Positions 589 to 59,893 of a stretch of 64,000 bases of DNA are shown in pieces; position 1 is the first letter of the stretch; the number at the start of each line of letters is the position of its first letter. Source of the stretch: an uncultured Methanosarcinaceae archaeon (lineage in GTDB: Archaea > Halobacteriota > Methanosarcinia > Methanosarcinales > Methanosarcinaceae); assembly GCA_963733675.1 (NCBI GenBank), contig CAVTET010000001.1, positions 256,001 to 320,000 of the forward strand, given 5' to 3'. Below the pieces are notes generated by a model. That model saw nothing but the letters and a program-made list of their open reading frames with translations. It was not told where the DNA came from and searched no databases. The position numbers were made by a program, and so were the translations under genes.

Positions 589-1249
589 ATAGGGAACTCT
601 CAAATAACCGGAGCTTTCAGAGAATATGTGGTTAATTTGGGCTTCATAGCCCTTGTTTCAACAATTTTTTTTCAACTATTTCCCTCATTCATATTCATGA
701 TCAAAAAGTTTGATTTAATGCCTTATGAATGAGATTTCTGCTCCAGTGCCAAAACATATTGAAAAACTTCTGGAAGTTCAGGTAACTTGAAAATTCACAA
801 ATGTGGCATTAAGGCAATCTGCATCTTCAAACAATTTTCCAGAACATTGTATCTCATTCTCTGAGACGTAAACTCGCCAATAGGTAAGGAAGAAAAGTAA
901 GCTTAAAAACTGCAAATAAGACGTATGAGTATAGAACTTCTGGTTCGGATATGGAGTTTTAAAAACGCCGTAGTAAAATTTATCAGTCTGCTCAGACAGT
1001 ACATTACCAACTGGCTCATATACTCAGTAAAATTTCACCCATTTTCACGATTTTTGCAAAAAAGTAATGTTGAAAATTTATCTTTTTCTGACGCAGTATT
1101 CATCTCAATTCCCAGTTGCCAAAATAATTAAAAAAATCACTTGAAATTGCATTAAGGGCGATGAGTAATCTTCCATTTTCCATGGATTTAAATTACCCCT
1201 TTCATAATCCGTGGAAAAGTAAGAGTATTTTGAATTATGCTGAAAAAGG

Positions 1250-2780
1250 AGGAAATGTTTTTGATGCGAGTTTAAACTTATAAAACTTGAGCATCAATTA
1301 CACTTCTAGGAAGAAAAAGCAAACTAGATCTTTTCAAACCTTACAGATCTGAAAAACTTGATTAAAGCTTCTATACTGCTACTCGACTCTATCTAGAAAT
1401 CAAATAAATTGATTTTGAGGGAGGAAAAACTATCTTCAAAGGCTTTATTAAGAGAAGTCAGACCAAAAAGGGGTATCTGCTGTACTCAGCTATGAAAATA
1501 GAGCAGGAATCTCAGCTCAGGTAGAACTGATAGAAATGGGAGCAATTGAAATTGATGGAGAGGAAAAACTATTTTGCTTCAACCTGATTCTTGGATATTT
1601 CAGGATGATGTACTTTGAATTTACACTGAGAATAGATCCCCTCTATCTCATCAAGTAGGACGTATTTGAGTACTTTGGAGAATCAAAGGAGATACTCTAT
1701 GCAAACATGAAACCGGTTATAATCAGAAGAGCCGTAATAATCCAGATTCGGAATATACCCACAGTTCAATGATTTTTTTGTTCAAGCATTAAGGATCCTA
1801 CCCAGCTTATGTAAGCCTTGTAGGCCTCAGACAAACGGCAATATTGAAAATATAGAAGGGGGGGTCAAGAGGGGGAGATCCCCTCTTGGGAAAATGTTCA
1901 CCTCTTTTCGAATACCTGAACTCCAAGTTCACAAATCATTGAAAAGGGTAAATTCAACTGACCACTAAGTTCCCTATAAAATAATTTTGAACTTTATTGA
2001 GGAGTAGAACTGAACCCTTTGGGTTAGGTTCCTCATTATAAATTAGTCCATCAGAAAACCAGAAAAATCCCAACGGACTTTTTTATTACTTCTCTTTAGA
2101 ACAAATATTTTGTTTCTTACAGGTTTTCAGGAAAAAGCACAGAGATTCAGATACTCGAAGGAAATGTAGAAGTCTATATTCATTACGAAACTTTTGTGAA
2201 CAGGGAACAATTCTGGAAAATATGGACTTGCAAGAAAAAGGAACATTTCCTGGGCCTTCGAAGTGAGATCTTGAAGATTACTTTAAAATGCCATGAAATT
2301 TCGCAGATTCAATTGAACTTTTCAGGCTCCGAAGTTGAAGAGTGGTCTTTTGAAGTTTATGAAATTTTCAGTGGAGGAAGTTCATCATGAACAAATTCAT
2401 CTATTAAATACTTCACAATGACCTTCATTACCCAAAAACAAATACTAATGAAAAGGCCCTAAACAACTTCCTTAAAATTGGTACAAGGGGCAGCAAAAAA
2501 CAATTGAAATTTTTGATTTTTTTGAAAAAGAAAAAAAGCAGATATAAAATATTGAAACTGAGTGAATAATGAAAAGTGCCATTCTTTCTGTGAAAAGCCC
2601 ATAGAAGAAATTTATTTTGAGTTTCACTTGTATATTGATAAAAAAATCATCGACAACTTTGTAACCTTGAAATTTATACTTAATGCAAGAAATGTTGTTT
2701 TGTTCTAACCTTTCGGAGTTGGAAAATCACACATTATAATTGTTCTTGAAATTGAAGCAGTAAAGTAAGTATTTCTGTTT
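1250..2780 (+). mobile_element. Degraded IS21-family element (istA/istB remnants)
   Basis: Broken frames give KLDLFKPY and RPQTNGNIE (IstA-like) and NVVLF.PFGVGKSH (IstB Walker A); many stops and frameshifts. Confidence 0.7.
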
Positions 2781-2804
2781 ATTGCTTCTGGAGTGCAGAG
2801 GGTC

Positions 2805-3255
2805 AAGAATCCCACGTTCTTTATTTAGGGGGTGAAGTGAACCCTCGAATCATTTTGTTTTCGTTTAATCCTCTAAATCATCGCTTTTTTCTAAAATATG
2901 TTTTTTTGGCACTATGGTAAAAGGTGATTTCACCCAGATATGACAGGGATTTAATACACATTGTGATTAAATAGCTTTAGCCATAGTTATGGCCAGATCA
3001 TCTATTAAATAGTGTTTGTTCCTAAGTATTGACTCAATATTAATACTCAATAATCGAATTAAAAAATATTGCATGTCTATCTTCACTACTTTTTACGTGG
3101 AGCAAGGCTATGAATTAATACTATGGAAGTTGGAGAATATCAAGTTCACTTATTACTGGAATTCAATCCAGAAAAATCGGTATAAGAAGTAGCTCAATAC
3201 TTGAAGGGAGGTAGTTCTCACAGACTTTTCGGGCTTTATCCTGAACTGAAATAAA
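2805..3255 (+). mobile_element. tnpA: IS200/IS605 left end plus tnpA pseudogene
   Basis: AAGAATCCCACGTTCTTTA...GTGAAGTGAAC end motif followed by SYGQII..VFVPKY and AQYLKGGSSHRLF fragments. Confidence 0.7.
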
Positions 3256-3480
3256 CCAAAAAAATATAAGGCAACCAGAGCATAATTTTGAGATGTCTTC
3301 TAACTCTCGATTTTAGTTTGTGGGTAAAAATGAAAATATTTTATAAAAAGTAGTATATATTCTCCGCAAATTCTGACAAAAGAACATATACCGGACAGAT
3401 GCCAAGCACCAAGATACATATTTTTATTTATGTATCCATATTTGTGTCTGTAACTGTGGAAATAAGAAAAGTAAAATTTT

Positions 3481-5352: not shown

Positions 5353-5406
5353 TAGCCTCCGACCCAAAGTTCGTAAACAAAACCTTTTAAGATATAAATA
5401 ATAACT

Positions 5407-5650
5407 TAGGACTTACGTACTTGAAGTACAAAGTCAAGCTCATTGGACCTTGTGATCAACTTTAATTGTGGACAATTAATGGTTTAATGTCATCGGATTC
5501 TCAGATCAACCTTTTAGATCTCTAATTGACAAGCAATCAAATATACGACTTACGAGCTTGAAATACAAAATCAAGTATATAAATTCTGCAGTTCAAAATC
5601 ATATTTCAGACAATTTAACGGATTAATGACATTGATTTCGAAGTCAAAGT
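5407..5650. mobile_element. Degenerate copies of the TAGGACTTACGC-ended MITE
   Basis: TAGGACTTACGTACTTGAAGTACAAA at 5407 and CGACTTACGAGCTTGAAATACAAAA near 5547. Confidence 0.6.
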
Positions 5651-5729
5651 GTGTTGGTTTTAAATAGATGGCGACCAAGAGAATATTACCCTAGGAAATT
5701 GATTCAAAAGTGGGATGATTTAATATAAT

Positions 5730-7125
5730 TAGGGCTTTTGCAGTCGCGGGTTCTAAATATTTGTTCCTAAACTTCTTCAATATGATTATAAATTTAAAGA
5801 GATATTGATAAATCTCTTATTTCTTACGAATAATTTTAAAACATTTTATGAGCTTATGGCTAAATTTAGAGATTTATCAAAATATTCTGGAGTTGTATCT
5901 TGGTGGCTCATATATGCCTTTTCGATCACTGTATGAGTATTGGATTACTATCATAATCAATAAAGCCCGTTTCTGATTTTGTTATAACTTCATCCTCAGA
6001 AAAGCTCCCACTTAGAACATTGTATCTGCTCTATGGGACTCTTTTAGTCTAAACTGATACTTTCCAAAACCCAAGATTGTTTTATTCCCCTCTGATATTT
6101 GTCAATTTTTCAGGGTTTTTTAACCAGATCTTTACCCTGTGATTCCTTCCTATCCAACACGTCTGTAACCCATTATTGGTTGTCTTCGTTATTTGAAATA
6201 TCCTAAATACTTTCACAAATCCATATACTTTCAGATAAACCACAATTTTTTTATGAAAGGGATTTAAGATGTTTAGACCAGCCTATTTTTTGTCTTATCC
6301 GGATTCACCAAAATGTTTGATTTCAACTTTGTCAAAAATACCATTTTTTTATCCCTGAAGCTTTGATTTCCTTAATCTTGCATACACTCATCAAAAAGAA
6401 TGAATTTCGGTTTAAATCCACATTTTTTGGTTTCATCAAGCATATCAAGAAAACTATCATTCTTGGTTTTATTGCCTTTAACGATATCATATACTAAAAT
6501 GAAAAGATAGTGAAGTATTTTATGTAAAATCACAACTCTCAGAGAATTTCGATAAACGCCAATTTTTGGCTGGTTGCTTGCAAAAGATATATATATAATT
6601 TTATATATAAGTAAGTTGTTAAAATATGTGGTTTATCTTAATTTTACTCAAAAATTGTTGAGAAAGTAAATTTCACATCTGAAGAACCAAATTATACATA
6701 ATACACAAAAATTTGATTTTGAATTTACAGCAGTCTGCGACACTGCCAAAATAACCTCTAATATAAGTTAATCAACTAGCTAAATCAAGGTAATCAAAAC
6801 AACTCCATCAACAATAGGACGATATTTTCCATTCCACAGATCCAGAATAAAATTTATCCTTTCAGAATAAAGTTTATCCAATATTGTGTTGTCGACTATC
6901 ATACGACCTTCTTTAAGAGTAACGAATTCCGTTATTTTAGATCACAAATATCTCGCAGTTGAGAGTTGCTTTCAAATGAGATGGATCCATCTGAAAATCA
7001 TTGATTATAAAAGGATAGTGGCATTCAGCTTCATTTCAGCCAAAAACGATAAATTCAGCAACAATAAAATTAATTTTATTAGGTCTTATGTTGTAGTAGG
7101 GTTATATCACTACTCCAACCATTAT
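5730..7125 (-). mobile_element. Degraded IS701-family transposase remnant interrupted by MITE insertions
   Basis: Minus-strand fragments KEGRMIVDNTILDKLYSE...WNGKYRPIV and GFKPKFILFD...WYFLTKLKSN.LVNPD; degenerate end ACTGCAAAAGCCCT near 5730. Confidence 0.65.
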
Positions 7126-7152
7126 ATTAACTATTTGCAAATAAATATATTT

Positions 7153-7243
7153 TAGAATTTTTTGATAAATCTCTGATTTTTATGAGCCATTTTATATACT
7201 ATTTATGTGGCTATGAAGAAACTTAGGAGTTTATCGAAATCCT
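7153..7243. mobile_element. ~90-bp MITE of the GAGGATTTCGATAAA family
   Basis: Imperfect terminal inverted repeats; related to 5798-5888, 15030-15119, 38093-38199 and 49019-49084. Confidence 0.65.
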
Positions 7244-7814
7244 ATACAAGATCTATCGTTTGATGGCACTGGAAATAAAAAGAGTATTTTAGAAATAGAG
7301 GAAGCTATCTTTCGAATAGTGAAATAATAAACGATATAGAAAATTTCACGATTCAGCTTGAACAAAACAGTTCCAATAGCCATCTTTGCAGGGATGCATC
7401 AAAATCGATTATCATCTAATGAATTTTGAGTAGACTAACTAGTTGCTAAAAAATCAGGTGAAAATACAACCATTAGCGGGTAAGATTTGGCCAGAATTCC
7501 ACAAAAAGCACTCAAGGTACATAGGAATCTTCACACTTGTTTTTACAAATGTAAATCGTTTATGAGATAAATATAATTACAAAAACTGCAAGGAAAAATA
7601 AAGAATTTTTAAGACATCTCTTGGATAATAAAAACTCTAAGTAAAATATCTTTCATTTGGAACCAGAAAGGAAAATCTATTCCAAAAGATACAACTATTT
7701 TACCCTTTTGAAAGCTGATTCGTATAGAACAAGGTTGTACCACCCAAAACTTATATAAATGATGATGTGTCTATGCAGTTGTACTTTGGTGTAATAAATG
7801 AAACATAACAAAAC

Positions 7815-7888
7815 GGGCTCGTGGTCTAGACGGTTATGACGTCGCCTTGACATGGCGGAGGTCCTGAGTTCGAATCTCAGCGGGCCCA
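7815..7888 (+). tRNA. tRNA-Val(GAC)
   Basis: Cloverleaf; GGGCTCG/CGGGCCC acceptor stem, TTGACAT anticodon loop, GTTCGAATC T-loop. Confidence 0.95.
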
Positions 7889-7973
7889 CTGAAACGTTTG
7901 AATGTTTTAAATAAAATTAGAGAGCATTATCTTTTTAAGTAATCTAAAATAGGTATATTTAAAGTCTCTGTTT

Positions 7974-8048
7974 GCCCAGGTAGCTCAGTGGGAGAGCGCT
8001 GCCCTGAAGAGGCAGTTGTCCCCGGTTCGAATCCGGGTCTGGGCACCA
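7974..8048 (+). tRNA. tRNA-Phe(GAA)
   Basis: Cloverleaf; CTGCC-CTGAAGA-GGCAG anticodon arm; encoded CCA. Confidence 0.95.
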
Positions 8049-8052
8049 CCTC

Positions 8053-8124
8053 ACATCAGTAGTGTAGCGGTCATCACCGGGCGTTGCCAACGCTCGAACC
8101 CGGGTTCGAATCCCGGCTGATGTA
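8053..8124 (+). tRNA. tRNA-Gly(GCC)
   Basis: ACATCAG/CTGATGT acceptor stem; GGGCG-TTGCCAA-CGCTC anticodon arm. Confidence 0.93.
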
Positions 8125-8460
8125 TCAAAAAAGGTTATTTACAGACTTTTTATTATTTATTTTTCCAAACATTTCTTCAAAATTTATGCATTTATGAACA
8201 GATATTTATATATGCCATTGCGTTCACTACAACTACTTTACATCTAAAATATATACTCAAGTTTCATTTTATGTTCCAACATTTGCTTTTTTTCCGTTAA
8301 CTTTTTAAACTGGATCGTGCACATCGTTAACATTTATTTTTTATTTAATTTTTAACTAATGGTGATTAGGCAGCTGTAAATCCAAATTTGTTAACCAGCC
8401 TATCGTTAACCAAAAATTAATTAAAACATTAAATCATCTTATTAGTTGGTCATATATCTC

Positions 8461-8665
8461 GAAGAGCCAAAAAGTCTGATTGAAGAGATCTATACCAACT
8501 ATGTTGCAGACCTGAAAAGTCATAGGAGAGCTAAAAATGTCCGGAAAGTTCCAGAAACGAGATGCAGAGCGGAAAGGTATTAGAAAAGAATATGAACTGG
8601 AGCAGAAGTTAATAAAAGAAATCGTAGATGAAATTCAGGTAAGCGGCGGTGGATCCATTAAGTGA
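8461..8665 (+). pseudogene. 3' remnant of an unidentified gene overlapping the SAMP start codon
   Basis: Coding-like purine-rich stretch ending ...KEIVDEIQVSGGGSIK*; its stop overlaps the next GTG (GTGA). Confidence 0.45.
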
Positions 8666-8874
8666 GTAAAGAGGTACACATAAAAATCCAGGCTGGAGAT
8701 ATTTCAGAGCAGACTTTAGAAATTGCTGAGAATACTACCTACGAAGATCTGCTCGATCGATTGAAAATAAATCAGGAAACTGTACTTGTGTTAAGTGGAG
8801 GTAATGCAGTTCCCCTTGATGGAACAATAAGTTCCAAAGAGATTACAATCCTGAAAGTTGTAACTGGAGGGTGA
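8662..8874 (+). CDS. Ubiquitin-like MoaD/ThiS (SAMP) family protein
   Basis: 70 aa, beta-grasp-like, C-terminal VVTGG di-glycine. Confidence 0.88.
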   Translation: MSKEVHIKIQAGDISEQTLEIAENTTYEDLLDRLKINQETVLVLSGGNAVPLDGTISSKEITILKVVTGG

Positions 8875-9342
8875 TTTGCTTAAAAAAGTGTTTGCCATCA
8901 TTAATTATAACTTTTTTTCAATTGTAACTTTTTTCACTTGTCTATTGTTATTGTAAGTTTTCTCGTTTACCGACAAGTTTTAGAACTTTTTTCACAGTTT
9001 ATAGCATTTGCCTAGTTTTTTATGGAATATAATTGTGGTCTTCATTGTGATATCCTTTACTAACTTTGCCCCAGTCAAGTGGACTAAATTGTAAGCAATT
9101 ATTTTTGTCGTTTATTTATATCCGGATGATGTTTAAAAAAATACAAATGTCCGTAAATTCCCTGATTTCCACTTTGAATACATAATTCAATATTCTCGAT
9201 AAGTGCATTTTTAAATTTAATCTTTTTCATCCTTATGAGGTGATATAATCTTAGCTATAAAATATTTTAAGACTTAGATATTCTCGATTGATAAAAATAC
9301 AAAAATAGATATTGAAATTATCACAATTATGGCAAAAGAGAA

Positions 9343-9372
9343 TGGTGAGAGCCCTTGAGAAAGTTCTCGCCA
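9343..9372. terminator. Hairpin between convergent SAMP and radical SAM genes
   Basis: TGGTGAGAGC / GTTCTCGCCA 10-bp stem with G-U pairs. Confidence 0.35.
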
Positions 9373-9451
9373 CATACTTTTATGTTGAATGAGATCTAAA
9401 ATATCAGAGAAAAAAGCTCAAAAAATAACCCGCTAGTATATTACCTTGAGA

Positions 9452-10678
9452 TCATCTTTTATATACCTTTTCAAAAGGATAGGGCAATTTTGCCTCTGCA
9501 GGAATTCTATCAACGAGTTCCATAAACTCGGGGTCACGCATCGGGGTCACATTTTTTTGACTCTGGAAATAGGGATAATTTCTGATTTTCTGCCAGATTT
9601 CTTTCAAGGATTCTTCTTTTACATTCCCAAAACTGAAAGGAATATACGGACTGGGCGTTACGTCTCCATATGCTGTAATATGCATCCAACGCCTTCCTGC
9701 CATAGCACCCAACATTTGTCCTTCAAAATAAGTGTTTGAAAACATTCGAAGGCCTTCACGACTGGAATTTATCCTGTGGTACATCTTTAATATATACTTA
9801 CGGTTCTCTTCAGTAAGTACAGGTTCTGCCCTGGTTTTTGGCATTGCTTCCCAGACTGAGAATTCATGCACACCCAATTCCGATGCAAGGTCATATAGAG
9901 CAGGAAGTTCATGTATGTTTGAAGGAGATACATGAGTTGTCATTACGACCATTAGTCCTGCTTCAAGTGCCATTTTTATGGCAGATGTTGCTCTTTCAAA
10001 CGCTCCTTCAGACTTCCGTATTACATCGTGTTTTTGAGGATTAGTTGAGTAAATGGCCACCATAATAGAATGAAGCTCTTCTTCTTTCAAACGGCAGGCA
10101 ATTTCTCTTGAAAAATCAGTACCCCATGTGGAACAGTTCACTATAGCATTTTTTTTATCCACATACTTGATGAATTCAAATACCTCTGCCCGTAGTAGAG
10201 GATCATTCTCTGTAAAGGTAATAATGAAAGTACCAAGTTCGAGAGCTTCGTTAATTATTCTTTTAATAGTACCTTTATCCATTTCCTCTGAGACCGTTTC
10301 AGGCGGATATCTAGAACTATTCTGGCATGTGAGTTCAATTGATATCGTTTCTGGGATGTATTTCCCTAGGGCTATTTGCATTTCTGCAAGAATGAGACGT
10401 TTGAACACAGAGCTCGGTATTGGTGGAAGCCAAGCCGAGGCAATTACTCTGTCTTCCTGTACAAGGGCTAGTTTTTCCTTTTGCAGGCGAGAATTAATCT
10501 TCTTCAGGATAGGGTTGCAAACTCCTTTCAGAGTTCCTGTTGCTGTAAGTTCCAGGGTATTTCTAACATGCTGGAGGTTTACAGATAGTCCTGGAAAGGA
10601 GATAATTTCTAAATTTTTTTCATCTACTAGAGGACTCCTCAATGGGAAGTCTGAGATATTCTTTTTCGCAGAAGTCAT
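9452..10678 (-). CDS. Radical SAM/SPASM-family homolog lacking the CxxxCxxC and SPASM cysteines
   Basis: PETISIELT, ITFTENDPLLR, HDVIRKSEGAFERA and GDVTPSPY..FSFGNVKEESLKEIW match the rSAM/SPASM layout; Cys motifs degenerate. Confidence 0.85.
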   Translation of the reverse strand: MTSAKKNISDFPLRSPLVDEKNLEIISFPGLSVNLQHVRNTLELTATGTLKGVCNPILKKINSRLQKEKLALVQEDRVIASAWLPPIPSSVFKRLILAEMQIALGKYIPETISIELTCQNSSRYPPETVSEEMDKGTIKRIINEALELGTFIITFTENDPLLRAEVFEFIKYVDKKNAIVNCSTWGTDFSREIACRLKEEELHSIMVAIYSTNPQKHDVIRKSEGAFERATSAIKMALEAGLMVVMTTHVSPSNIHELPALYDLASELGVHEFSVWEAMPKTRAEPVLTEENRKYILKMYHRINSSREGLRMFSNTYFEGQMLGAMAGRRWMHITAYGDVTPSPYIPFSFGNVKEESLKEIWQKIRNYPYFQSQKNVTPMRDPEFMELVDRIPAEAKLPYPFEKVYKR

Positions 10679-10922
10679 TTTTTTCTCCCAGATTCCTGAT
10701 TTAACTGCTGAATATCCATAATAGCCTTTTATTTCCTAGTTGAACTCCAGAAGATCTCTAATTAAAAATCAGCTGAACATTATTTTAGAACTTCAAAAAT
10801 AGGCAATGTATGGTATGAGAGTCTGGAGCCTGAGAATAAAGACTTAAACTATCCAGGCACGAGAAATGAATACAAAAGTAGTCGTCCTGGATTTCCTTAG
10901 TCATGTTTAAAAAGCTTAAACC

Positions 10923-11531
10923 TCAAACTTTTTCTGAAAAGGCAAGATTTCCACTAATCTTCTTTATTTTTACCTTGACGACGTCGCCTTTTGCGGCCCC
11001 CGGCACAAAAACAGTGTATTTATCTATTTTTGCTATCCCATCACCTTTGGATCCCACTGCATCAATCCGAAGTTCATAGATTCCACCTTCTTCGATAGCA
11101 TCCCTGACAACCACGTTGCTGACCTTTCTCTTTTTGACAGGTCTGTGAGCTCCGCAAGCAGAACATTTCAAGATAAGTACCCTTTCCACCCTAACAAGCT
11201 GAGTATCGGGGCGTTCGCATTCTGAGCACATGACATACTCGTCAACATAAGCATGTATGTTATCAGTAATTTGAGCTCTCGTGAACCTTCCCTGGAAGAC
11301 TGCACGTGTGCCTTCTATCTTACCTGCAGTCCCGAGCTCCCTGGTGAGATATTTCATCAGGTGATCAATGTCACGGTTAAGGATATCTGCAATATTTCCA
11401 AAGTTATCCAGAATTGTGGTCTTGCCTTCAGAAAATACTCTGGGCTCAGGGATTACGAATCGAGCATCTGTAGTCTCAATATCAGGCATTTTTGCAATTG
11501 CACGGTTCAAAAGCTCTTCGTAATCGTACAT
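10923..11531 (-). CDS. eif2b: Translation initiation factor aIF-2 beta with C-terminal TRAM domain
   Basis: ELGTAG, CSEC..PDT..CSACGA Zn ribbon, TRAM motif GSKGDGIAK. Confidence 0.95.
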
Positions 11532-31278: not shown

Positions 31279-32133
31279 GGTTCCGTTGCAAAAATCCTTT
31301 CTAATTGATGCAATAGAATAAAAAGAAAACTAAAGATAGTAATATGCTATCTGATTCTTTTAAATGGAAGCATTATGAAGGAGAAATTATCTTATTGAAT
31401 GTAAGATGGTACTTAAAATACCCACTGAGCTATCGAAACTTAAAGGAAATAATGATAGAAAGAGGAATTCAAGTTGATCACAGTACTATAATGAGATGGG
31501 TACATCAATATTCTCCTGAAATAGAAAAGAAGATAAGAAGACATTTAAGACCAACAAATGATTCGTGGAGAGTTGATGAAACCTATATCGAAGTAAAAGG
31601 TAAATGGAAATATCTTTATCGAGCAGTTGATTCAAATGGAGATACAATGGACTTCATGTTAAGTTCAAAACGAAATAGAAAAGCAGCGAATAGATTCTTT
31701 AAGAAAGCTTTAAGTTCAAATCAGAATCAAATTCCAAGAGTAATAACCGTTGATAAGAATCCAGCTTATCCACCTGTTATAGATAAACTGAAAAATGATA
31801 AAATACTACCTAAAAACGTAGGTATTCGACAAATCAAGTATTTGAATAACATTATAGAACAAGATCATCGATATATATAGCGGATAATTGCTCCAATGTT
31901 AGGATTTCAGTCTTTTCGATCTGCTAATAAAACCTTAAAAGGAATTGAAGCTATGAATATGGTCAAAAAAGGACAAGTCAATAATCTAAATTACTCTGTT
32001 TTTAATGAAGTCAAATACATTAATCAATTGTTTGGTATGGTTTTATAATGTTAGTACATTTTCCTTGAATATTTTGATTTTTATTCATTACTTATAGATT
32101 TACACATTTTTTTGAATTTTTTGCAACGGAACC
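31279..32133 (+). mobile_element. IS6-family element; transposase 31344-32048 with a single in-frame TAG
   Basis: GGTTCCGTTGCAAAA TIRs; WRVDETY, TVDK, NNIIEQDHR DDE motifs. Confidence 0.95.
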
Positions 32134-32584
32134 TGACATAATAAAGGACTTGCTCTACTTAAGTTAAATGAATCCGATTTGTAGGTTGAATATTTATTAA
32201 ATTTTTATTTATTATCTATCTTTCTTGATATAAATATAGCAACTTTTTGGCTTTTTAACATATAACATATTTTAATAAAAACTTGTATCCACTCACAACC
32301 AGGTAAAATATCCTATAATTTCGGCTGAAAAATGAGAAAATACAAAATTTTCAGACAAAAAAATTGTGCATCAATGAAAACACTAGAAACATAAGCTTTA
32401 TCAGTAAAACTAATGGCTTGACATCCTAATTTGTGCAATGAAAGAAAATGATAAAGAACCAATCATGTTTTACAGGACTTTAGCTACCCTGTCCCAACAA
32501 ATCAGATTCAGTTAATCTATTTAAATAAATATCTTTTGCCGTCTAATGCTGTTGAATCTAGTGGGTTATACATTTCAATTTTAT

Positions 32585-32836
32585 TTATCCCACAAAAGCG
32601 ATTTTAAGATAACTCAGTATAATGACAATTACTGCACCAATACTACCACCTAATGCACAAATGAGGATTGTCCATATAGATACTGCTACTTTTAAGCCGA
32701 AAAACCTTGCTACGTATAAAATTGCTAGACCAATCACTGCATGAATCCCAAGATGAATCAGATTGTCAAATAAATTATACAAAAAGAACGCCACTATTAA
32801 AGCGACGACCAATACTAAAATTTCAGTTAATATCAT
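32585..32836 (-). CDS. BofA-like small membrane protein
   Basis: 83 aa, three hydrophobic segments, ICALGG..G pattern. Confidence 0.65.
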   Translation of the reverse strand: MILTEILVLVVALIVAFFLYNLFDNLIHLGIHAVIGLAILYVARFFGLKVAVSIWTILICALGGSIGAVIVIILSYLKIAFVG

Positions 32837-33039
32837 GTATTAATAAAATGTTGTTTTATTATTTATTCCCATTTCAACATTTGAGAATTTTTTCCCCCAA
32901 AAAAATGAAGACACTGGAAACAGAAATAGGGTACAAAAATAAAAAAATCATGATCTCGCTGTTTAAAATTTGGGGAATGGATCTCGATCTTTGCCTATGT
33001 TTTTGATAATTAGATCATTCCATAGCTTATAGGAATTTC

Positions 33040-33378
33040 GGTTCCGTTGCAAAAAAATATGAGATCGATATATGAAATAAATAGGAATTTAAGAGTATAT
33101 AATATGCCATTAAATACCTTCTTATCCTCTTTTTTATCTCAGGTGGATATTGATGTACCCATCTCATTATAGTACTGTGATCAACTTGAATTCCTCTTTC
33201 TGCCATCATTTCCTTTAAATTTATATAGCTCAATGGATATTTTAAGTACCATCTTACTGTTTGCAGAATGATTTATCCTACAAAGTGTTTCCATTTAAAG
33301 GTATTTAATGGCATATTATATACTCTTAAATTCCTATTTATTTCATATATCGATCTCATATTTTTTTGCAACGGAACC
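33040..33378. mobile_element. IS6 deletion derivative with 81-bp inverted arms
   Basis: 33040-33120 is the reverse complement of 33298-33378; interior is the transposase 5' end. Confidence 0.9.
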
Positions 33379-33487
33379 CATCTCAGGGTTAAGAGAATTC
33401 AAACTTTTTGACCAAAACTATACCGCTGTTCAATCATTTTATCATGAAATCAAAGTACTCATTGCACTCATGAAAGGTCGTAAATTT

Positions 33488-33815
33488 TCACTGTCCATTG
33501 TGCGTTGGTCGGTCTCCTGCCTAATTTGCTTCTTGCTTACAAACATAAGCACCGCTATTGGTATGCCTGTAACAGCGTTGACCTTTGAAATGAGAGATGC
33601 CTGATGGGAGATTAAGCCAAACAGCAGTATCGTATGGACAATGATGTTGGGCTGCTTATTCTGTGCTGAATAATGTCAGTTCGTAGTTGCCTGTGCTGGT
33701 GTAACTGTGATGGGGCTGATAAGCGCTTATTGCCGGAGCTGCAACTGCTGCTACAAAAAAACAATTAGTATAATACCCAGTATTTTTTTGTTTGGTTACA
33801 TGTTTGTTTTCCCAT
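33488..33815 (-). pseudogene. Small secreted protein pseudogene (HCP..VWLN..SG..H..G...GAYVC)
   Basis: Signal peptide KKILGIILIVFFVAAVAAPA; in-frame TAA and TAG; not in the ORF track. Confidence 0.7.
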
Positions 33816-34322
33816 TTGTTTAGAATCCAAACTTTTGTTCAATTCTATCATCAGTTCGATGAACGCCATTTTTTGGTATATTAAATTGTTACTGCTAAAT
33901 AGTGTATATCCATTTTGATTTCACATTAAAATGAAACATATATATACTCATTTATTTATTAAAATTGCAATTATTAAATAGGTATTATGCTTTTTCATTT
34001 TTTTGACCGATTCAAATCGACTCTATACTCTTTTTTGTCACAAGTTGATGGGATTTATTATTTTGATTATTGTATATATTCTTATAGCAAAAACTATGTA
34101 TTTTTCTAATTTCAGACAAAATTAGAGGATATTCTTACCATATTGTGCAGAAAATACTTAGTTTTCATTAAAATATATGTCATCTTCAAAAACCAAAAAG
34201 TTGCTATATTTATCTTGTGAAGGATAAGAAATAAATAATAATTAAATAACTATAAAACCTACAAATCAAATCTATTTAATTGTTTTAGATAAAAATCTTT
34301 TATTGTTCCAAGCTAATGGATT

Positions 34323-34495
34323 TTACGGGTTAAGTTCAATTGCTTTGTCGTATGCTGTTATGGCTTCATCGGATTTATTTAGGTCAGATAGAAAATTTCC
34401 TTTAGAGATCCAAACATCTGAGTCCGGTGTCACACTTGCGATATTAACTAGGATCAAAACAGATCCAAACAACGTTGAGAAATAATATTTGCTTA
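34323..34495 (-). pseudogene. Secreted TPR protein remnant
   Basis: DSDVWISKGNFLSDLNKSDEAITAYDKAIELNP. Confidence 0.65.
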
Positions 34496-34499
34496 GAAC

Positions 34500-34623
34500 T
34501 ATTTGAAATATTTTTAGTATTATGTGAGAAATTAATAGCATTAAACTGTTAACTGTCTGAAATATAAATTTAAAAAACAATGAATATTGCACTCTATTTT
34601 ATACTTCAAGTGCTCAAGTCCTA
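34500..34623. mobile_element. TAGGACTT-family MITE copy
   Basis: AATAGCATTAAAC core and TACTTCAAGTGCTCAAGTCCTA right end. Confidence 0.65.
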
Positions 34624-34671
34624 TAGTTAAACAAAAAAATAGAACAGATATATTTTTTTTAGATGATTGTC

Positions 34672-35211
34672 ATGTTTGGGAAATACAAGGACCTTGTTGA
34701 AAAGGCTTCCGAAATAGGGATTAAATCTCACTTTCTGGATGCAAAGATCATTCCGATTGAAAACCGTACTGTTCTGAAGTGCGCTTACGGCTGCAAAGAT
34801 TATTGAACAAGGTCAAGCTGCCCACCTTATGTTATGTCAATTGATGAGTTCAGGAAGGTTATAGCGGAATACAACAGTGCACTTTTCCTTGTAGATGAAC
34901 ACGATAATGCAGAAGTTGCCGATATTCATGAAGCATGGTCAGGGCTTTTGAAGTACTCCTTCCATAAAATGTTCGAGCTTGAGCAGGAAGCTTTTAGGGA
35001 AGTCTTTACCTTCGCACATCTTCTGAGGCCTGGCCCCTGTAACGAATGTGAGATATGTAACCTTGATAAATGCGTAAAGCCAGAAATGAAGCGTTTTGCA
35101 CCTGAAGCTGTGGGAATAAATCTCCTGAAAGTAATGGGAAGTTTCGGACTTGCGCTTGAGTTCTGTAAACCAGAGAAAACTGTATGTATCGGGATTTTGC
35201 TTATTGAGTAA
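34672..35211 (+). pseudogene. DUF2284 (metal-binding) protein with in-frame TGA at 34804
   Basis: LKCAYGCKDY*TRSSCPP, GPCNECEIC, PEAVGIN. Confidence 0.8.
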
Positions 35212-55645: not shown

Positions 55646-56819
55646 TCATAAAATATCTAATTCAATACTAGCAACACAGTAACCTGAAATACAGAGAAGA
55701 TAAGCCCTGTTGACTAGTTCAAGCATATTCTGATTTTCCCGCTCTATTCTTATTCCGCAAGCAAGGGACAGGTACTCAGTAAGGTCAAAAACCCTTATTT
55801 TCTCATCTTTTCCAGCCTCAATGAGGTTCTGCATACAACCCCCACAATTCGTGATGATTGTATCACATCCCAGCTTTTCTGCAGCTCTGAATCTATCCGA
55901 TGCCATGGAAAGGGATTCGGAAGGATAGTTAATTCTTACTCCACCTCCAAAACCACAACACGCTGAGTTTTTAGGAGTTTTATTGGCAAGTTCGGTTCCC
56001 TCGATTTTTTCAAGCACATTTCTTGCTTCTTGATAGACTCTCATTCCCCGGGTCAAGTGGCAAGGATCATGATAAAAAATTTTGTGATTAAGAGTAGTCT
56101 CAGGAATCAGTTTACCGTTTCTTAACAGAAGTTCTAGATATTGGGAAACGTGCATGACCTGGAAATCAAGTTTTCCAAACATCCTTGGATATATGTCCTT
56201 AAAAGCTTTGAAACATCCTGGACAGGCAGTTATAATAATTTTTGCTCCTCTTTTTCGTACTTCCTTGATATTTTGCTGGCCGTTCTTGTGGATAGGACTA
56301 GGATTACCAGCACCTGCAGATACAGCTCCACAACAGTACTCAATCCCACTCAGAATAGTATAATCGACCCCTGCTTTCTCCAAAAGAGCAACTGCCGCTT
56401 TCACCATGCTGGTATTGATGTAGGTACCTGCGCAACCTGGGAAATAAGCTACAGAACCGAGACCATTTTTATACATGGGAATCTCACTCATTTCAGCGAT
56501 TTTTTTGAATATGTTATTTTGAGCATTCGGATCCACTATGGTTTGTCTGTCAGTAAGACCGTTTTCAATTATCCACTTTTGTCGGGCAGGAGAAATAAGT
56601 GGCTTGATTCCAAGTCCTTCAGGACAAGCGCAGGTGCAAAGTCCGCAAGTGAGACAGCGAAGAAGAGAGCCGGAATCAATGTCTGAATTTCCTTCTAAAT
56701 ACTTGCAGAGTTTTTCAATTAATTTGTGATCATTATATCTAGGGCAGACTTCAAGGCATTGTCCACAATATGTACATTTTTCCCGGTGTTTTTTTAAGAT
56801 ATCTATTTTTCAACTCCAT
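55646..56819 (-). CDS. HdrD/GlpC-like Fe-S protein (2x[4Fe-4S] plus two CCG domains); +1 A frameshift near the start
   Basis: CTYCGQCLEVCP and CLTCGLCTCACP are in frame upstream of the annotated GTG; YCCG, ACPGC, HDPCH, CCGFGG. Confidence 0.85.
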
Positions 56820-56826
56820 ATCTTCT

Positions 56827-56948
56827 TAGGACTTGTGTACTTGGAATACAAAATTAAACATAATAAACAATGTAGTTTAAATTTTCCATTTTAAACAATT
56901 ACAGATTTAATGCTATTGATTCTCAAGTTCAACTGTATAAATTTTACA
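56827..56948. mobile_element. TAGGACTT-family MITE (reverse orientation)
   Basis: TAGGACTTGTGTACTTGGAATACAAAA...AATGCTATTGATT..TTCAACTG. Confidence 0.7.
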
Positions 56949-56951
56949 TTA

Positions 56952-57908
56952 TTAAGGATTCTCATTACAATACATACATGGCGTCGACGATATTGAGCAG
57001 GAGTTGTTCAGGCATCTACTCTGCAAACTTGTTATCGCTTTCCAGCCTGTATAGTGCATGGGTACAATGTAATCAAGCTTGATTTTTTTCATTTCGTCAA
57101 TTGTAGGCTGAATTATATGGTCAAAGAATTGCCCTGTCAGGTGAAAGCCTCCTAGAATTGCATGAACCTTATTCGTCCTTGTAATTTTCTTAGCATAATC
57201 GATTGTATTGATAATTCCTGTATGAGCACAATCGCTAATAACAAACAATCTCTTTGTTCTTCAGTTTTATTTTCAAGCTTGATCATCCTTAAAAGGATCA
57301 ATAGTCCAGTTTCCATCGATTTTTGCTTCAGCCCAGAATAGTTCCTTTCAAATGCTGTTGTTCGTTTCACCTCTCATGTAGTATGAATAAAGCTATTTAC
57401 AATCTGTAAAGTTCTTTTCAACGTTATGGGAAAAGCTCCTGCTTCTATCAAAATACCTTCATCGAGTGAAGGTATTGTGACAGGATGTCCAATTGAGGGA
57501 TTATTCGTGCAGCTTTCAAGAAAAGCGTCATGATGGAGATCAAGAGGGACTCCTTTATCTCGCTCTTTACCTATAAGTTTCAAGAGCTCGACAAGTCCAA
57601 GAAGATGATCAAGATGGCCATGGTTCAGGATAGCAGCTTTTATTCCGCCAAGAACAGCCTCTAAAAGCGCTGCATTATCAAAAAGCAGGCTTGTGTGACT
57701 GCAGCATCCAAAAGTACGATACGTTCCTCAGCGACTGCATAAACTTTAATCAGGCATGAAAGTTCGTGTTCGACGAGGAGTATTCTATGGACGGGTAATT
57801 GCAGTTTTCTACATATATCGGTATTTTCTGTTACTAACCTTGGCGTGTGAACATCGATTAGAATGTTACTTCCAACCTGTCAGTTTCTCGAATACTCAGC
57901 TCATCCAT
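56952..57908 (-). pseudogene. MBL-fold metallo-hydrolase pseudogene
   Basis: EHELSCLIKV, LNHGHLDH, CAHTGIINT, LGGFHL, PMHYTG; frameshifts. Confidence 0.8.
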
Positions 57909-57965
57909 AAAAATATCTGAGTTTATCTGGGGTATGGATTTTCATTTAGTTGAAATATGCTTGTT

Positions 57966-58069
57966 GGGACTTAAGACTTGAGATCTAAAATTAAGTACAA
58001 TAAACACTTTGGTTTAATGAGTTTAAGGTTTAATGCTATTGATTTCTCATTTCAACTGCATATAGTCCT
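57966..58069. mobile_element. TAGGACTT-family MITE (reverse orientation)
   Basis: GGGACTTAAGACTTGAG...AATGCTATTGATTT..TTCAACTGCATATAGTCCT. Confidence 0.7.
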
Positions 58070-58267
58070 GCGGATTAAAATTCGATTTCCTTGAGATATG
58101 GCTTAATCACTTTTCGGTGTGCGCTACATAACCAGCGAATACTTTTCCACATTCATTGCACGCAAGATATGTGGCACAGAATTGTGTTAGTTGCTTCAAA
58201 GTGAGAGCATTTACATTTCCATTTTGAAGGGGATCAAATTGTTTCTACCATAATCTCAACTTCTATT

Positions 58268-58353
58268 TGGTGAGAGAGGTGCGATTTGAACACTGAACTC
58301 CTACAAGATCATACTCTCAATTTGATGCTTTTGGCCTGTTGAGCTACTCTCGC
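58268..58353 (-). pseudogene. Degenerate tRNA-Leu(GAG) gene
   Basis: Reverse complement GCGAGAGTAGCTCAACAGGCCAAAAGC...TTGAGAG...CTTGTAGGAG...GTTCAAATC...CTCTCTCACCA; long variable arm, mismatched stems. Confidence 0.7.
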
Positions 58354-59426
58354 ACACTAATTATTCTTCAACCAACTTAATGCAACTATGTAAAATAACA
58401 TGTGTAGAATAGATATTCTCAAAAGTAGTGAGAATTCCGCAAATTTCAAGTTTTTTCCGAATTTTTTTATAGAAATATGAAGTGGAAACAATATTTTTAT
58501 GTTATCAATCACCTTAAAATATATACGAAAGAATGGCAAGTACGACAAAAATTATTGCAAGCCACTTCGCAATATTCATAGATAAGCCTTCGATTCCTTG
58601 TGCACCCAATATATATGTAACCAATGCGAAAACCAGTAAAATTACAGCAAGTCCTATCAAACCAGGCACTTTTCACTCCCCCAATGTATTTAAACAATAA
58701 ATCAGTTGCTAGTGAATTTCAGGAGAAAAAAGTAGAAACTCCTGAGTTATTATTTAAGAAATAATTAATTTTTATGTCCTATCTGTAATTACAATTCATG
58801 TTTGTTCCATCTATTATGTCTCACAATAAGGTTTATATCTATACTGAGATACGCAGATATTGTTCTTCGTGAGTTAAAGATTATTTATCCTTATCAAAAC
58901 CTTCTTCTTTTTCCAAATACAATAGTTATGTTATTTTGAATATATCGATAGAGACTATATAGTGTTATTCTTTAACAACTTCACTAAAATATAACGTAAA
59001 AAACCTGATAAATAGGTAAATGAATGAGTGATAAAATATAGATCCTATCTTACTTGAAGCTGAACATACGAAATTTCAGGCCAGAGCCAGCACAGGAATT
59101 TCCTGATATTATCCTTTTCATTCTTCATATACCATTTTTATAGCATATCTTGCAAATTTTTTCCATTCTATATACTGCGTGAACTTTTGTAATTTTTCAG
59201 GCAGTTGATTATGATTTTATCTATACTTGGAAATAGGCCTTTTAATTTCCTTTTTATGAAAATGTTTCAGTGGCGGTCTATCCGCCAGGAAACTGCTTCC
59301 TGTTTTTGCCAAGGCTATAGGATCAAAACCATAACGCTGACATTGAGGATCAATTAGATTTTGAATATAAAAAAATTGTTTTTATCCGTATCATTTTTAG
59401 GTAGGAAGAATAAATCATATGGAATT

Positions 59427-59893
59427 TTAGATCTCCAGCACTTTTACAGCCAGATCGGCGTTGATAACATAATCAAAGTTGATTATTTTATCCCATTTCT
59501 GCTGCATGAACATAGACTGAAAACATAATCCGATAATTCTTTTTTTCCCGAATTTTCGAGGACCTTTCTGGCAATTTCGTTTGCTTTTTCAGGATGTATC
59601 CCCGTTTTCGACATTGCAAGTCCACCGAGCAGGACGATCAAATCAGCATGTGCATCTGTGAGCTCTCCAAGCTGCATACCCTCAGGAGTCATATGGATCG
59701 ATCTAGCTTTCTCGAAGTCTAGATTGGGGATGAAGGCAAGTTTTTTATCCCGGACTACAAAACTTAGAAGTTCAGCAAAGGGAGTGCAGAAACCTGGCGT
59801 TCCCAAAAAAGTGATCTTTTCTGCTCCTTCTGCAAGGTCCCTGAAATTGTTCAGGATACCTCCTACTCCTTGTGAGGTGTTTATTATTGACAT
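59427..59893 (-). CDS. DUF2124 family protein; frameshift in an A-run near 59540
   Basis: GTPGFCTPFAEL, LLGGLAM; shifted frame continues IIGLCFQSMF..KW..FDYVINADL. Confidence 0.8.

Follow-up and report, generated by a model that had tools for sequence, protein, structure and literature searches.

A putative cluster-free descendant of a radical SAM enzyme retained in Methanosarcina and related genera

Introduction

Homologs of radical S-adenosylmethionine (SAM) enzymes that lack the cysteine (Cys) ligands of the iron-sulfur (Fe-S) cluster are a recognised category already: NCBIfam holds a curated family of full-length radical SAM/SPASM homologs under the name 'pseudo-SAM/SPASM protein' (TIGR04347, pseudo_SAM_Halo), which, to judge from the name of the model, is probably confined to Halobacteria. 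We know of no Cys-less radical SAM homolog with a measured function. The available text of PMC8305020, which deals with haloarchaeal AhbC and AhbD, does not mention a pseudo-SAM protein, and no paper on the protein described here, on its orthologs or on a Cys-less radical SAM protein in Methanosarcina was found in the literature, supplements aside. The present work concerns such a gene in a stretch of 64,000 nucleotides (nt) from an uncultured Methanosarcinaceae archaeon (assembly GCA_963733675.1, contig CAVTET010000001.1, positions 256,001 to 320,000), which as a whole is referred to as the window; the gene encodes a protein of 408 amino acids (aa), and its features are listed in Table 1.

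The protein is very probably free of Fe-S clusters and maintained by selection. As a homolog of an enzyme family that lacks the essential residues and is held by purifying selection, it would qualify as a pseudoenzyme. The statement as a whole, i.e. that it serves as a cluster-free, non-radical, ligand-binding helper in a pathway linked to isoprenoids or methanophenazine, beside two intact paralogs, is given somewhat better than an even chance. A preliminary description of the locus had proposed a radical SAM/SPASM homolog selected for a role without a cluster; the comparison of genomes adds that this was a single in-place conversion of an ortholog that was kept Cys-bearing elsewhere, and that no part of the protein is under stronger constraint than the former pocket.

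Table 1. Features of the gene and of the encoded protein (positions in the window)
Feature	Position	Strand	Remarks
Whole open reading frame (ORF), putative cluster-free radical SAM/twitch descendant	9452..10678	(-)	408 aa and stop codon
C-terminal tail, residues 373-408	9455..9562	(-)	holds T378, the fourth former auxiliary ligand
Twitch/SPASM-like domain, residues 305-372	9563..9766	(-)	Pfam SPASM match at residues 327-372; auxiliary Cys replaced
Partial TIM-barrel core, residues 135-304	9767..10276	(-)	from column entropy and structural model
Former radical SAM cluster loop, residues 116-134	10277..10333	(-)	CxCxCxxC in orthologs, LTCQNSSRYPP here
N-terminal family-specific domain, residues 19-108	10355..10624	(-)	from alignments and secondary structure; common to both Cys-bearing paralogs
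GGGAG Shine-Dalgarno-like motif	10685..10689	(-)	6 nt 5' of the ATG, from sequence

The gene and the loss of its cluster ligands

The ORF has an ATG start codon and no internal stop codon, as the preliminary description had stated, and T-rich runs follow its stop codon. Pfam domains were recognised for Radical_SAM (PF04055; residues 118-264, 53.2 bits against a cut-off of 29.5) and SPASM (PF13186; 30.8 bits against a cut-off of 21.5). No NCBIfam family matched the protein at or above its cut-off; all Pfam and NCBIfam matches above noise are to radical SAM/SPASM families, and a protein-atlas search led to no clusters other than that of the protein itself and generic radical SAM ones. Metatranscriptome contigs from three studies, with at least 95% identity, cover most of the ORF: record 17 of run X5 covers positions 9300-10436, and record 3 of run X1 covers 9824-10977, thereby crossing the start of the ORF into the aIF2beta gene; in runs X2 and X6, portions of the ORF are without contig cover, which does not indicate that a transcript is absent. 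These contigs are only compatible with transcription of the gene, and some of them may derive from close relatives.

Four Cys are found in the protein (residues 54, 118, 182 and 195), none of them at a ligand position. The CxxxCxxC triad that PF04055 requires is absent from the protein, from the 120 homologs listed as the best of 330 matches in a word-indexed search, and from all 51 loci of the Cys-less clade described below; residues 115-126 are ELTCQNSSRYPP, where the paralogs have CPNNCIHC. In the alignment with Cys-bearing orthologs the cluster loop is shortened in the Cys-less protein. The orthologs have four conserved Cys in the first loop and four more at positions 325, 335, 343 and 378 (numbering of the window protein), where the window protein has A325, T335, S343 and T378 in place of the auxiliary Cys of PF13186. 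Four downstream Cys are enough for one auxiliary cluster, so the ancestor would have been twitch-like, not a full two-cluster SPASM protein.

The motif strings quoted in the preliminary description are all present (TENDP, residues 156-160; GAMAGRR, 324-330; VTPSPY, 340-345; TPMRD, 378-382). Its claim of Cys loss in both domains holds in so far as no ligand position has kept its Cys, and needs amendment in so far as the ancestor would not have had the ligands of a full SPASM domain. The change from GGEP to TENDP that it had reported needs amendment too: the GGE-type motif, which in the superfamily contacts the methionine part of SAM, reads GGE(P/T) in the paralogs, TEGDP already in the Cys-bearing orthologs, and TENDP here, and of the latter string only G158N is specific to the Cys-less clade.

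Orthologs, gene order and polarity of the loss

The 120 listed homologs have full or almost full length, and most show 68-91% identity to the window protein; they have one to four Cys each, none at the motif, and those with named sources come from Methanosarcina or from archaeal metagenome-assembled genomes. Across the 121 sequences, 165 of the 408 columns are at least 97% conserved. In an exhaustive search of representative proteins, the nearest outside relatives were a Methanococcoides protein (54% identity, CKCNCDHC, 10 Cys in total) and a Methanolapillus ohkumae protein (47% identity, a single Cys).

Eighty related genomic loci were compared. The protein is Cys-less in each of the 51 loci from Methanosarcina and near relatives (L008-L058), and it carries CxxxCxxC and four auxiliary Cys, with 9-11 Cys in total, in each of the 29 loci (L059-L087) from Methanococcoides, Methanolobus, Methanomethylovorans, Methanosalsum, Candidatus Methanovorans and other Methanosarcinaceae. 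Further orthologs from five other genera of the family, three of which have genomes of 1.5-2.2 Mb, are Cys-less as well (8/8). The best matches in three other families of the class are all Cys-bearing (6/6), and therefore the Cys-bearing state is regarded as ancestral. A Cys-less clade beside Cys-containing paralogs, for which the preliminary description had suggested a search, is thus borne out by the 51 loci, the eight further samples and two Cys-bearing paralogs in the genome of the window. The contrary possibility that it had named, that close orthologs keep their Cys, is true only of more distant genera (52-58% identity), and these define the ancestral state.

In 75 of the 80 loci the gene for aIF2beta lies directly upstream on the same strand, in most cases preceded by L10e, and the five other loci hold less than 1 kb of upstream DNA each; TrpRS and PheRS-alpha genes lie downstream in three annotated loci. 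Because of this shared gene order, the Cys-less proteins are not a side copy but the positional orthologs of the Cys-bearing proteins. The adjacency to aIF2beta is treated as inherited gene order; a functional link with aIF2beta or its TRAM domain was rejected as a candidate, since the adjacency is seen in both small-genome loci (2/2) but in none of the six loci of the three other families (0/6). Outside the family, the neighbours of the Cys-bearing orthologs (OapB/OapC, an argininosuccinate synthase fragment, a GTPase, FKBP and McrB) gave no clue to a pathway. A KaiC-like ATPase (PF06745, 221.7 bits; L082:4191-4976) is encoded between aIF2beta and the Cys-bearing ortholog in Methanolobus, and a gap of approximately 0.9 kb after aIF2beta was observed in about half of the Cys-bearing loci and in no Cys-less locus.

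A quick IQ-TREE protein tree of 90 rows, from which L013 was left out because it is truncated at 372 aa, places the Cys-less label as one change. SH-aLRT support for the Cys-less group is 88 when the long branch of Methanolapillus is included, and the Methanosarcina group by itself has 99; the paralogs of the window's own genome fall outside the orthogroup. In an independent FastTree phylogeny of concatenated aIF2beta and L10e sequences (72 genomes), a single branch with support 0.989 lies between the 46 Cys-less and the 26 Cys-bearing genomes, and the two small-genome loci fall on the Cys-less side. The simplest reading of these trees would be one loss in a common ancestor. The available text of PMC11362671 describes, within the Methanosarcinaceae, a gut clade whose genomes are reduced to 1.6-2.2 Mbp; with this clade we equate, by inference from the reduced genomes and the Methanolapillus protein, the small-genome genera found here.

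Selection

Ratios of nonsynonymous to synonymous substitution rates (dN/dS) were calculated by the Nei-Gojobori method from one codon alignment, and pairs with dS of 0.05-1.5 were considered usable; the results are summarised in Table 2.

Table 2. Pairwise dN/dS of the gene and of the aIF2beta control
Gene and group	Pairs	Saturated	Usable	Median dN/dS	Spread
Target gene, Cys-less clade (51 sequences)	1275	112	861	0.115	interquartile range 0.105-0.129, maximum 0.266
Target gene, Cys-bearing clade (29 sequences)	406	298	42	0.062	
aIF2beta control, Cys-less genomes	1081	0	1031	0.053	
aIF2beta control, Cys-bearing genomes	351	254	49	0.051	

Neutral evolution, which the preliminary description had named as the outcome that would speak against its proposal, is contradicted by the median of the Cys-less clade, and selection for a role without a cluster is supported in its core by this median together with the clade itself. 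For the window copy against its four nearest relatives, dN/dS is 0.17-0.27 at dS of 0.14-0.26. Because the aIF2beta control behaves alike in both groups of genomes, the twofold difference between the clades is specific to the target gene; constraint has eased modestly after the loss of Cys, and the gene is far from neutral. The small-genome genera (1.5-2.2 Mb) retain three matches to the family each.

Predicted structure and distribution of conservation

The AlphaFold2 model of the protein alone, a prediction that the preliminary description had suggested, was built from a 74-row alignment and shows a confident fold, with a predicted local distance difference test (pLDDT) of 91.5 and a predicted template-modelling score of 0.90. 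Weak parts of the model are residues 1-18 (pLDDT below 50) and the block of residues 121-130 (mean pLDDT 56, with residues 125-127 below 50). Foldseek searches with this model returned SkfB (6efn, E 3.6e-14), PqqE (6c8v) and BlsE (7vob), and also CteB, SuiB and MoaA.

The N-terminal domain comprises three strands, a helix, an invariant S-x-W-L-P-P-I-P stretch and a second helix. It has no Pfam match; when it was modelled alone (pLDDT 81.6), Foldseek gave nothing at E of 0.001 or less (best E 0.48), and in a VIA-align search of 48,161 chains the highest Z was 4.5, so that none of the rows reached a Z of 5. No known fold could be assigned to the domain, and an interpretation as an RRE/PqqD-like peptide-binding domain is neither strengthened nor weakened by these searches. 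The barrel core is marked by the strand-end motifs TENDP, STWGTDF, YST..KHD, TTH and EFSVWE.

The C-terminal strand-end face of the barrel is the SAM/substrate pocket in active radical SAM enzymes. With the barrel faces located from the strands of the model, the mean column entropy in the Cys-less clade is 0.34 bits for this face and 0.66 bits for the barrel helices, and the pattern is alike in the Cys-bearing clade (0.44 vs 0.78). The entropy of the twitch/SPASM-like domain is 0.45 in the Cys-less and 0.69 in the Cys-bearing clade, and the cluster loop is the only region that is less conserved than in the Cys-bearing clade (0.87 vs 0.55).

At a threshold of 90% conservation, 131 columns hold one and the same residue in both clades; a further 16 are conserved in both clades with different residues, including G158N, P185W, C124Y, C325A and C335T, and seven are relaxed in the Cys-less clade. 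Another 29 are fixed only in the Cys-less clade, a count inflated by the shallower sample of that clade, and many of them lie near the C-terminus (including Y368, P369, Y370, Q372, H381, P383 and E384); of the positions in the tail, H381 is found in most members of the clade (R381 here).

Paralogs and a lead to a pathway

Two paralogs are encoded in the genome of the window, with ORFs of 392 aa (in L002) and 379 aa (in L003) and with 35% and 37% identity to the target, respectively. Both keep CPNNCIHC and the auxiliary Cys, and they share with the target the N-terminal domain of about 90 residues with TW(L/I)PPIP, the barrel, and a short twitch-like C-terminal domain. The three genes are not adjacent (contigs C1 and C4). 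The family is present in all 81 sampled Methanosarcinaceae genomes (16 genera), with three matches in 77 genomes, four in one and two in three, and a match was found in 119 of 121 genomes of the class. Other full-length members of the family that are more distant (P0168, P0190 and P0265; 25-31% identical, among 150 representatives) also have no CxxxCxxC; P0190 and P0265 keep the Cys of the auxiliary cluster and may be independent partial losses. A weak radical-SAM-like match at L007 (G000:C3:283449-283814; E 4.8e-4), which is interrupted by three TGA and one TAA codons, may be a broken radical SAM gene.

The L002-type paralog lies directly beside a gene for a prenyl-diphosphate synthase resembling geranylfarnesyl diphosphate (GFPP) synthase in 8 of the 10 loci compared, which come from two families; L104 and L111 are the exceptions. 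The pair (L002:1489-3714, contig C4 of G000; loci L102, L103 and L105-L110) is conserved and operon-like. The L003-type paralog adjoins a gene of the geranylgeranyl-reductase family encoding 401 aa (L003:1480-3908, contig C4 of G000). GFPP synthase is said, in work of Ogawa and colleagues from 2010, to supply the side chain of methanophenazine. The pairing may mark methanophenazine biosynthesis or another isoprenoid pathway. As a marker of methanophenazine across families, GFPS_Meth (NF040627) gave no match past its cut-off in five of five genomes and was therefore uninformative. The biosynthesis of methanophenazine was described as unresolved or not yet known in 2017 and 2018, in the available text of PMC5244752 and PMC5852551.

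The two genomes of the class without the family (G112 and G156, both of family f2 and approximately 99% complete) encode two proteins each of the MqnA/MqnD family (PF02621; 198-258 bits), and no genes of this family were found in three genomes that have the paralog set (G000, G119 and G100); in this very small sample the distribution looks complementary. An assignment of the three paralogs to methanophenazine biosynthesis is reasonable, though its support is thin, and the target's own link to it is family membership only.

Proposed role and alternatives

In the reading that we prefer, the gene encodes a protein, predicted to be stable and folded, that descends in place from a radical SAM enzyme with an auxiliary [4Fe-4S] cluster beside its radical SAM cluster. 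All eight Cys ligands were replaced, in the ancestor shared by Methanosarcina and the small-genome genera of the family, by residues that cannot hold a cluster; given the established chemistry of radical SAM enzymes, reductive cleavage of SAM should then no longer be possible. The gene has remained under purifying selection ever since, and conservation is strongest on that face of the barrel which in active relatives makes up the SAM/substrate pocket. Through this pocket the protein may bind a ligand in a non-radical manner, e.g. hold, present or sense the substrate of the family or an intermediate, and may do so in the same process as the two paralogs, which are predicted to be catalytically intact and which complete a set of three in nearly every genome of the class that was searched. 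The shared process is probably linked to isoprenoids and would most likely be methanophenazine biosynthesis, which is the least secure step of the proposal. A bolder version, in which methanophenazine biosynthesis has its missing core in the three paralogs that occur as a class-wide set, and in which the third member has turned into a cluster-free, intermediate-binding subunit in Methanosarcina and in the small-genome, gut-type genera, is doubtful; if true, methanophenazine would be made without one radical-dependent modification, or the dead subunit would channel a polyprenyl-phenazine intermediate between the live enzymes.

Alternatively, the protein could be purely a scaffold or partner subunit that stabilises or regulates one or both of the active paralogs, or another protein, by surface binding, with its pocket idle. 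The co-occurrence of the paralogs throughout the family and nearly throughout the class, and the N-terminal domain common to all three, would suit such a role; the paralog genes are not adjacent in the genome of the window, however, and conservation is concentrated on the pocket face, away from the outer helices, contrary to what one would expect of a role confined to the surface. Because the pocket face is the most conserved part, a role that depends on the pocket is favoured, and the scaffold is considered unlikely. A complex prediction for the target with the L002-type paralog scored 0.00 against a mark of 0.32, for a single pair and with controls that did not fold, and speaks neither for nor against such a complex.

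Judged equally unlikely is a cluster-free enzyme, and hence no pseudoenzyme, with a new, non-radical chemistry on the same or a related substrate. The highly conserved pocket face, the 16 columns with exchanged residues and the 29 newly fixed columns could be accounted for in this way, but the latter count is inflated as stated above, constraint was relaxed and not tightened, and no catalytic motif of another class of enzyme was found, the Pfam and NCBIfam matches being radical SAM/SPASM throughout.

Fe-S clusters with ligands other than Cys exist in other proteins, and an Fe-S or other metal centre might be kept here in a similar manner, with radical SAM activity retained. The eight former ligand positions, with the consensus N, S, Y, E/G, A, T, S and S/T in the Cys-less clade, hold no set of His, Asp or Cys and no alternative ligand set of the kind that the preliminary description had allowed for, the shortened loop is the region of lowest conservation, and the glycine of the GGE-type motif is replaced; we consider such a centre very improbable. 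A decaying gene that is intact here by chance, for which the gene-poor window might speak, can practically be dismissed in view of the frame without internal stops in all 80 loci (L013 being cut short at 372 aa), the dN/dS values both within the clade and against the nearest relatives, and the retention of the gene in small-genome genera.

Several points weigh against the non-radical, ligand-binding helper that we prefer. The Cys-less clade has about twice the dN/dS of its Cys-bearing orthologs, i.e. constraint did relax, and the two clades are unequal in depth, which rules out a strict comparison of their entropy values and of the number of newly fixed columns. G158N may block the binding of SAM, and any ligand therefore need not be SAM. 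No biochemistry and no ligand were found in the literature, supplements aside, for the protein or for any ortholog, and the RNA evidence consists of contigs, for which carry-over of DNA is possible. As to the pathway, the neighbours of the target itself are housekeeping genes (L10e, aIF2beta, TrpRS, PheRS), and are unrelated again outside the family, so that only the paralogs provide a link to a pathway. The GFPP-synthase neighbour in the genome of the window scored 576 bits against a cut-off of 600 for the Methanosarcina model, the geranylgeranyl-reductase-like neighbour is below the cut-offs as well (TIGR02032, 100.9 bits; digeranylgeranylglycerophospholipid reductase model, 108 bits), and the contrast in Mqn genes is one of two genomes against three.

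Because the gene was converted in place, not by duplication, sister genera offer a live and a dead version of it for comparison. Nor does the genome hold a recent Cys-bearing duplicate that could supply the lost chemistry, the nearest paralogs having 35-37% identity. Methanosarcina is a genetically tractable genus; direct tests of the gene are therefore feasible in such a host, and this comparison of live and dead versions in cultivable methanogens is the main value of the finding. The context of the family, furthermore, nominates three uncharacterised genes as candidates for methanophenazine biosynthesis.

Surroundings in the window

In a rough count, ORFs of at least 100 aa make up approximately 40% of the 64-kb window, with 11 gaps of more than 1.2 kb, which is compatible with the remark of the preliminary description that dispensable genes in the window are broken. 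Gaps without such an ORF include positions 589-3480, 5353-9451, 31881-34833 and 56492-59482; for a prokaryote, this is a low density of genes. The spacer between the target gene and a convergent SAMP2-like gene is 577 nt long (positions 8875-9451); in the nearest relative (L008:6228-8110), approximately 1.9 kb at this spacer are without an ORF of at least 60 aa, and the corresponding indel of about 1.5 kb is apparently non-coding. A link between the target and this SAMP-like gene had been put forward in the preliminary description as unproven. A SAMP2-like gene lies in the flanks of only 4 of the 80 loci (L008, L009, L010 and L012); the adjacency is not conserved, and therefore nothing points to a functional link between the two genes.

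Upstream of the SAMP2-like gene is a cluster of tRNA genes, tRNA-Val(GAC), tRNA-Phe(GAA) and tRNA-Gly(GCC), at positions 7815-8124 (+). The aIF2-beta gene at positions 10923-11531 (-) encodes a C-terminal TRAM domain (residues 148-202; Pfam, 47 bits) and matches the 203-residue NF008993 model with 319.7 bits.

Comparison with known systems

TIGR04347, the family named pseudo-SAM, does not include the target, which scored 71 bits against the cut-off of 525, while AhbC of the same genome scored 423.5 bits on this model. The model is thus AhbC-like and the target far below it, and therefore the target would represent an independent loss in another subfamily. Of the curated families, AhbD (TIGR04545, 115.1 bits) and then NirJ2 (102 bits) gave the best scores for the target, far below their cut-offs of 500 bits; the genuine AhbD (611 bits) and AhbC (741 bits) of the genome are encoded by separate genes.

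Among proteins of known structure, SkfB, PqqE and BlsE resemble the target in having a partial TIM barrel and a C-terminal cluster domain (E 3.6e-14 to 1.1e-11, template-modelling scores 0.45-0.61), and BlsE and PqqE were also matched by sequence. They differ in that they bind Fe-S clusters, are only 18-21% identical and do not have the N-terminal domain of the target. The paralogs of L002 and L003 differ from the target in having kept the cluster Cys and in having a GFPP-synthase-like or a geranylgeranyl-reductase-like neighbour.

The closest known proteins are the Cys-bearing orthologs of other Methanosarcinaceae, e.g. WP_135609651.1 of Methanococcoides sp. AM1, annotated as 'radical SAM/SPASM domain-containing protein', with 52-58% identity over the full length. 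They share with the target the N-terminal domain, the barrel motifs and the position after aIF2beta, and they differ from it by CxCxCxxC and the four auxiliary Cys, by TEGDP in place of TENDP, and by a dN/dS of about half that of the target.

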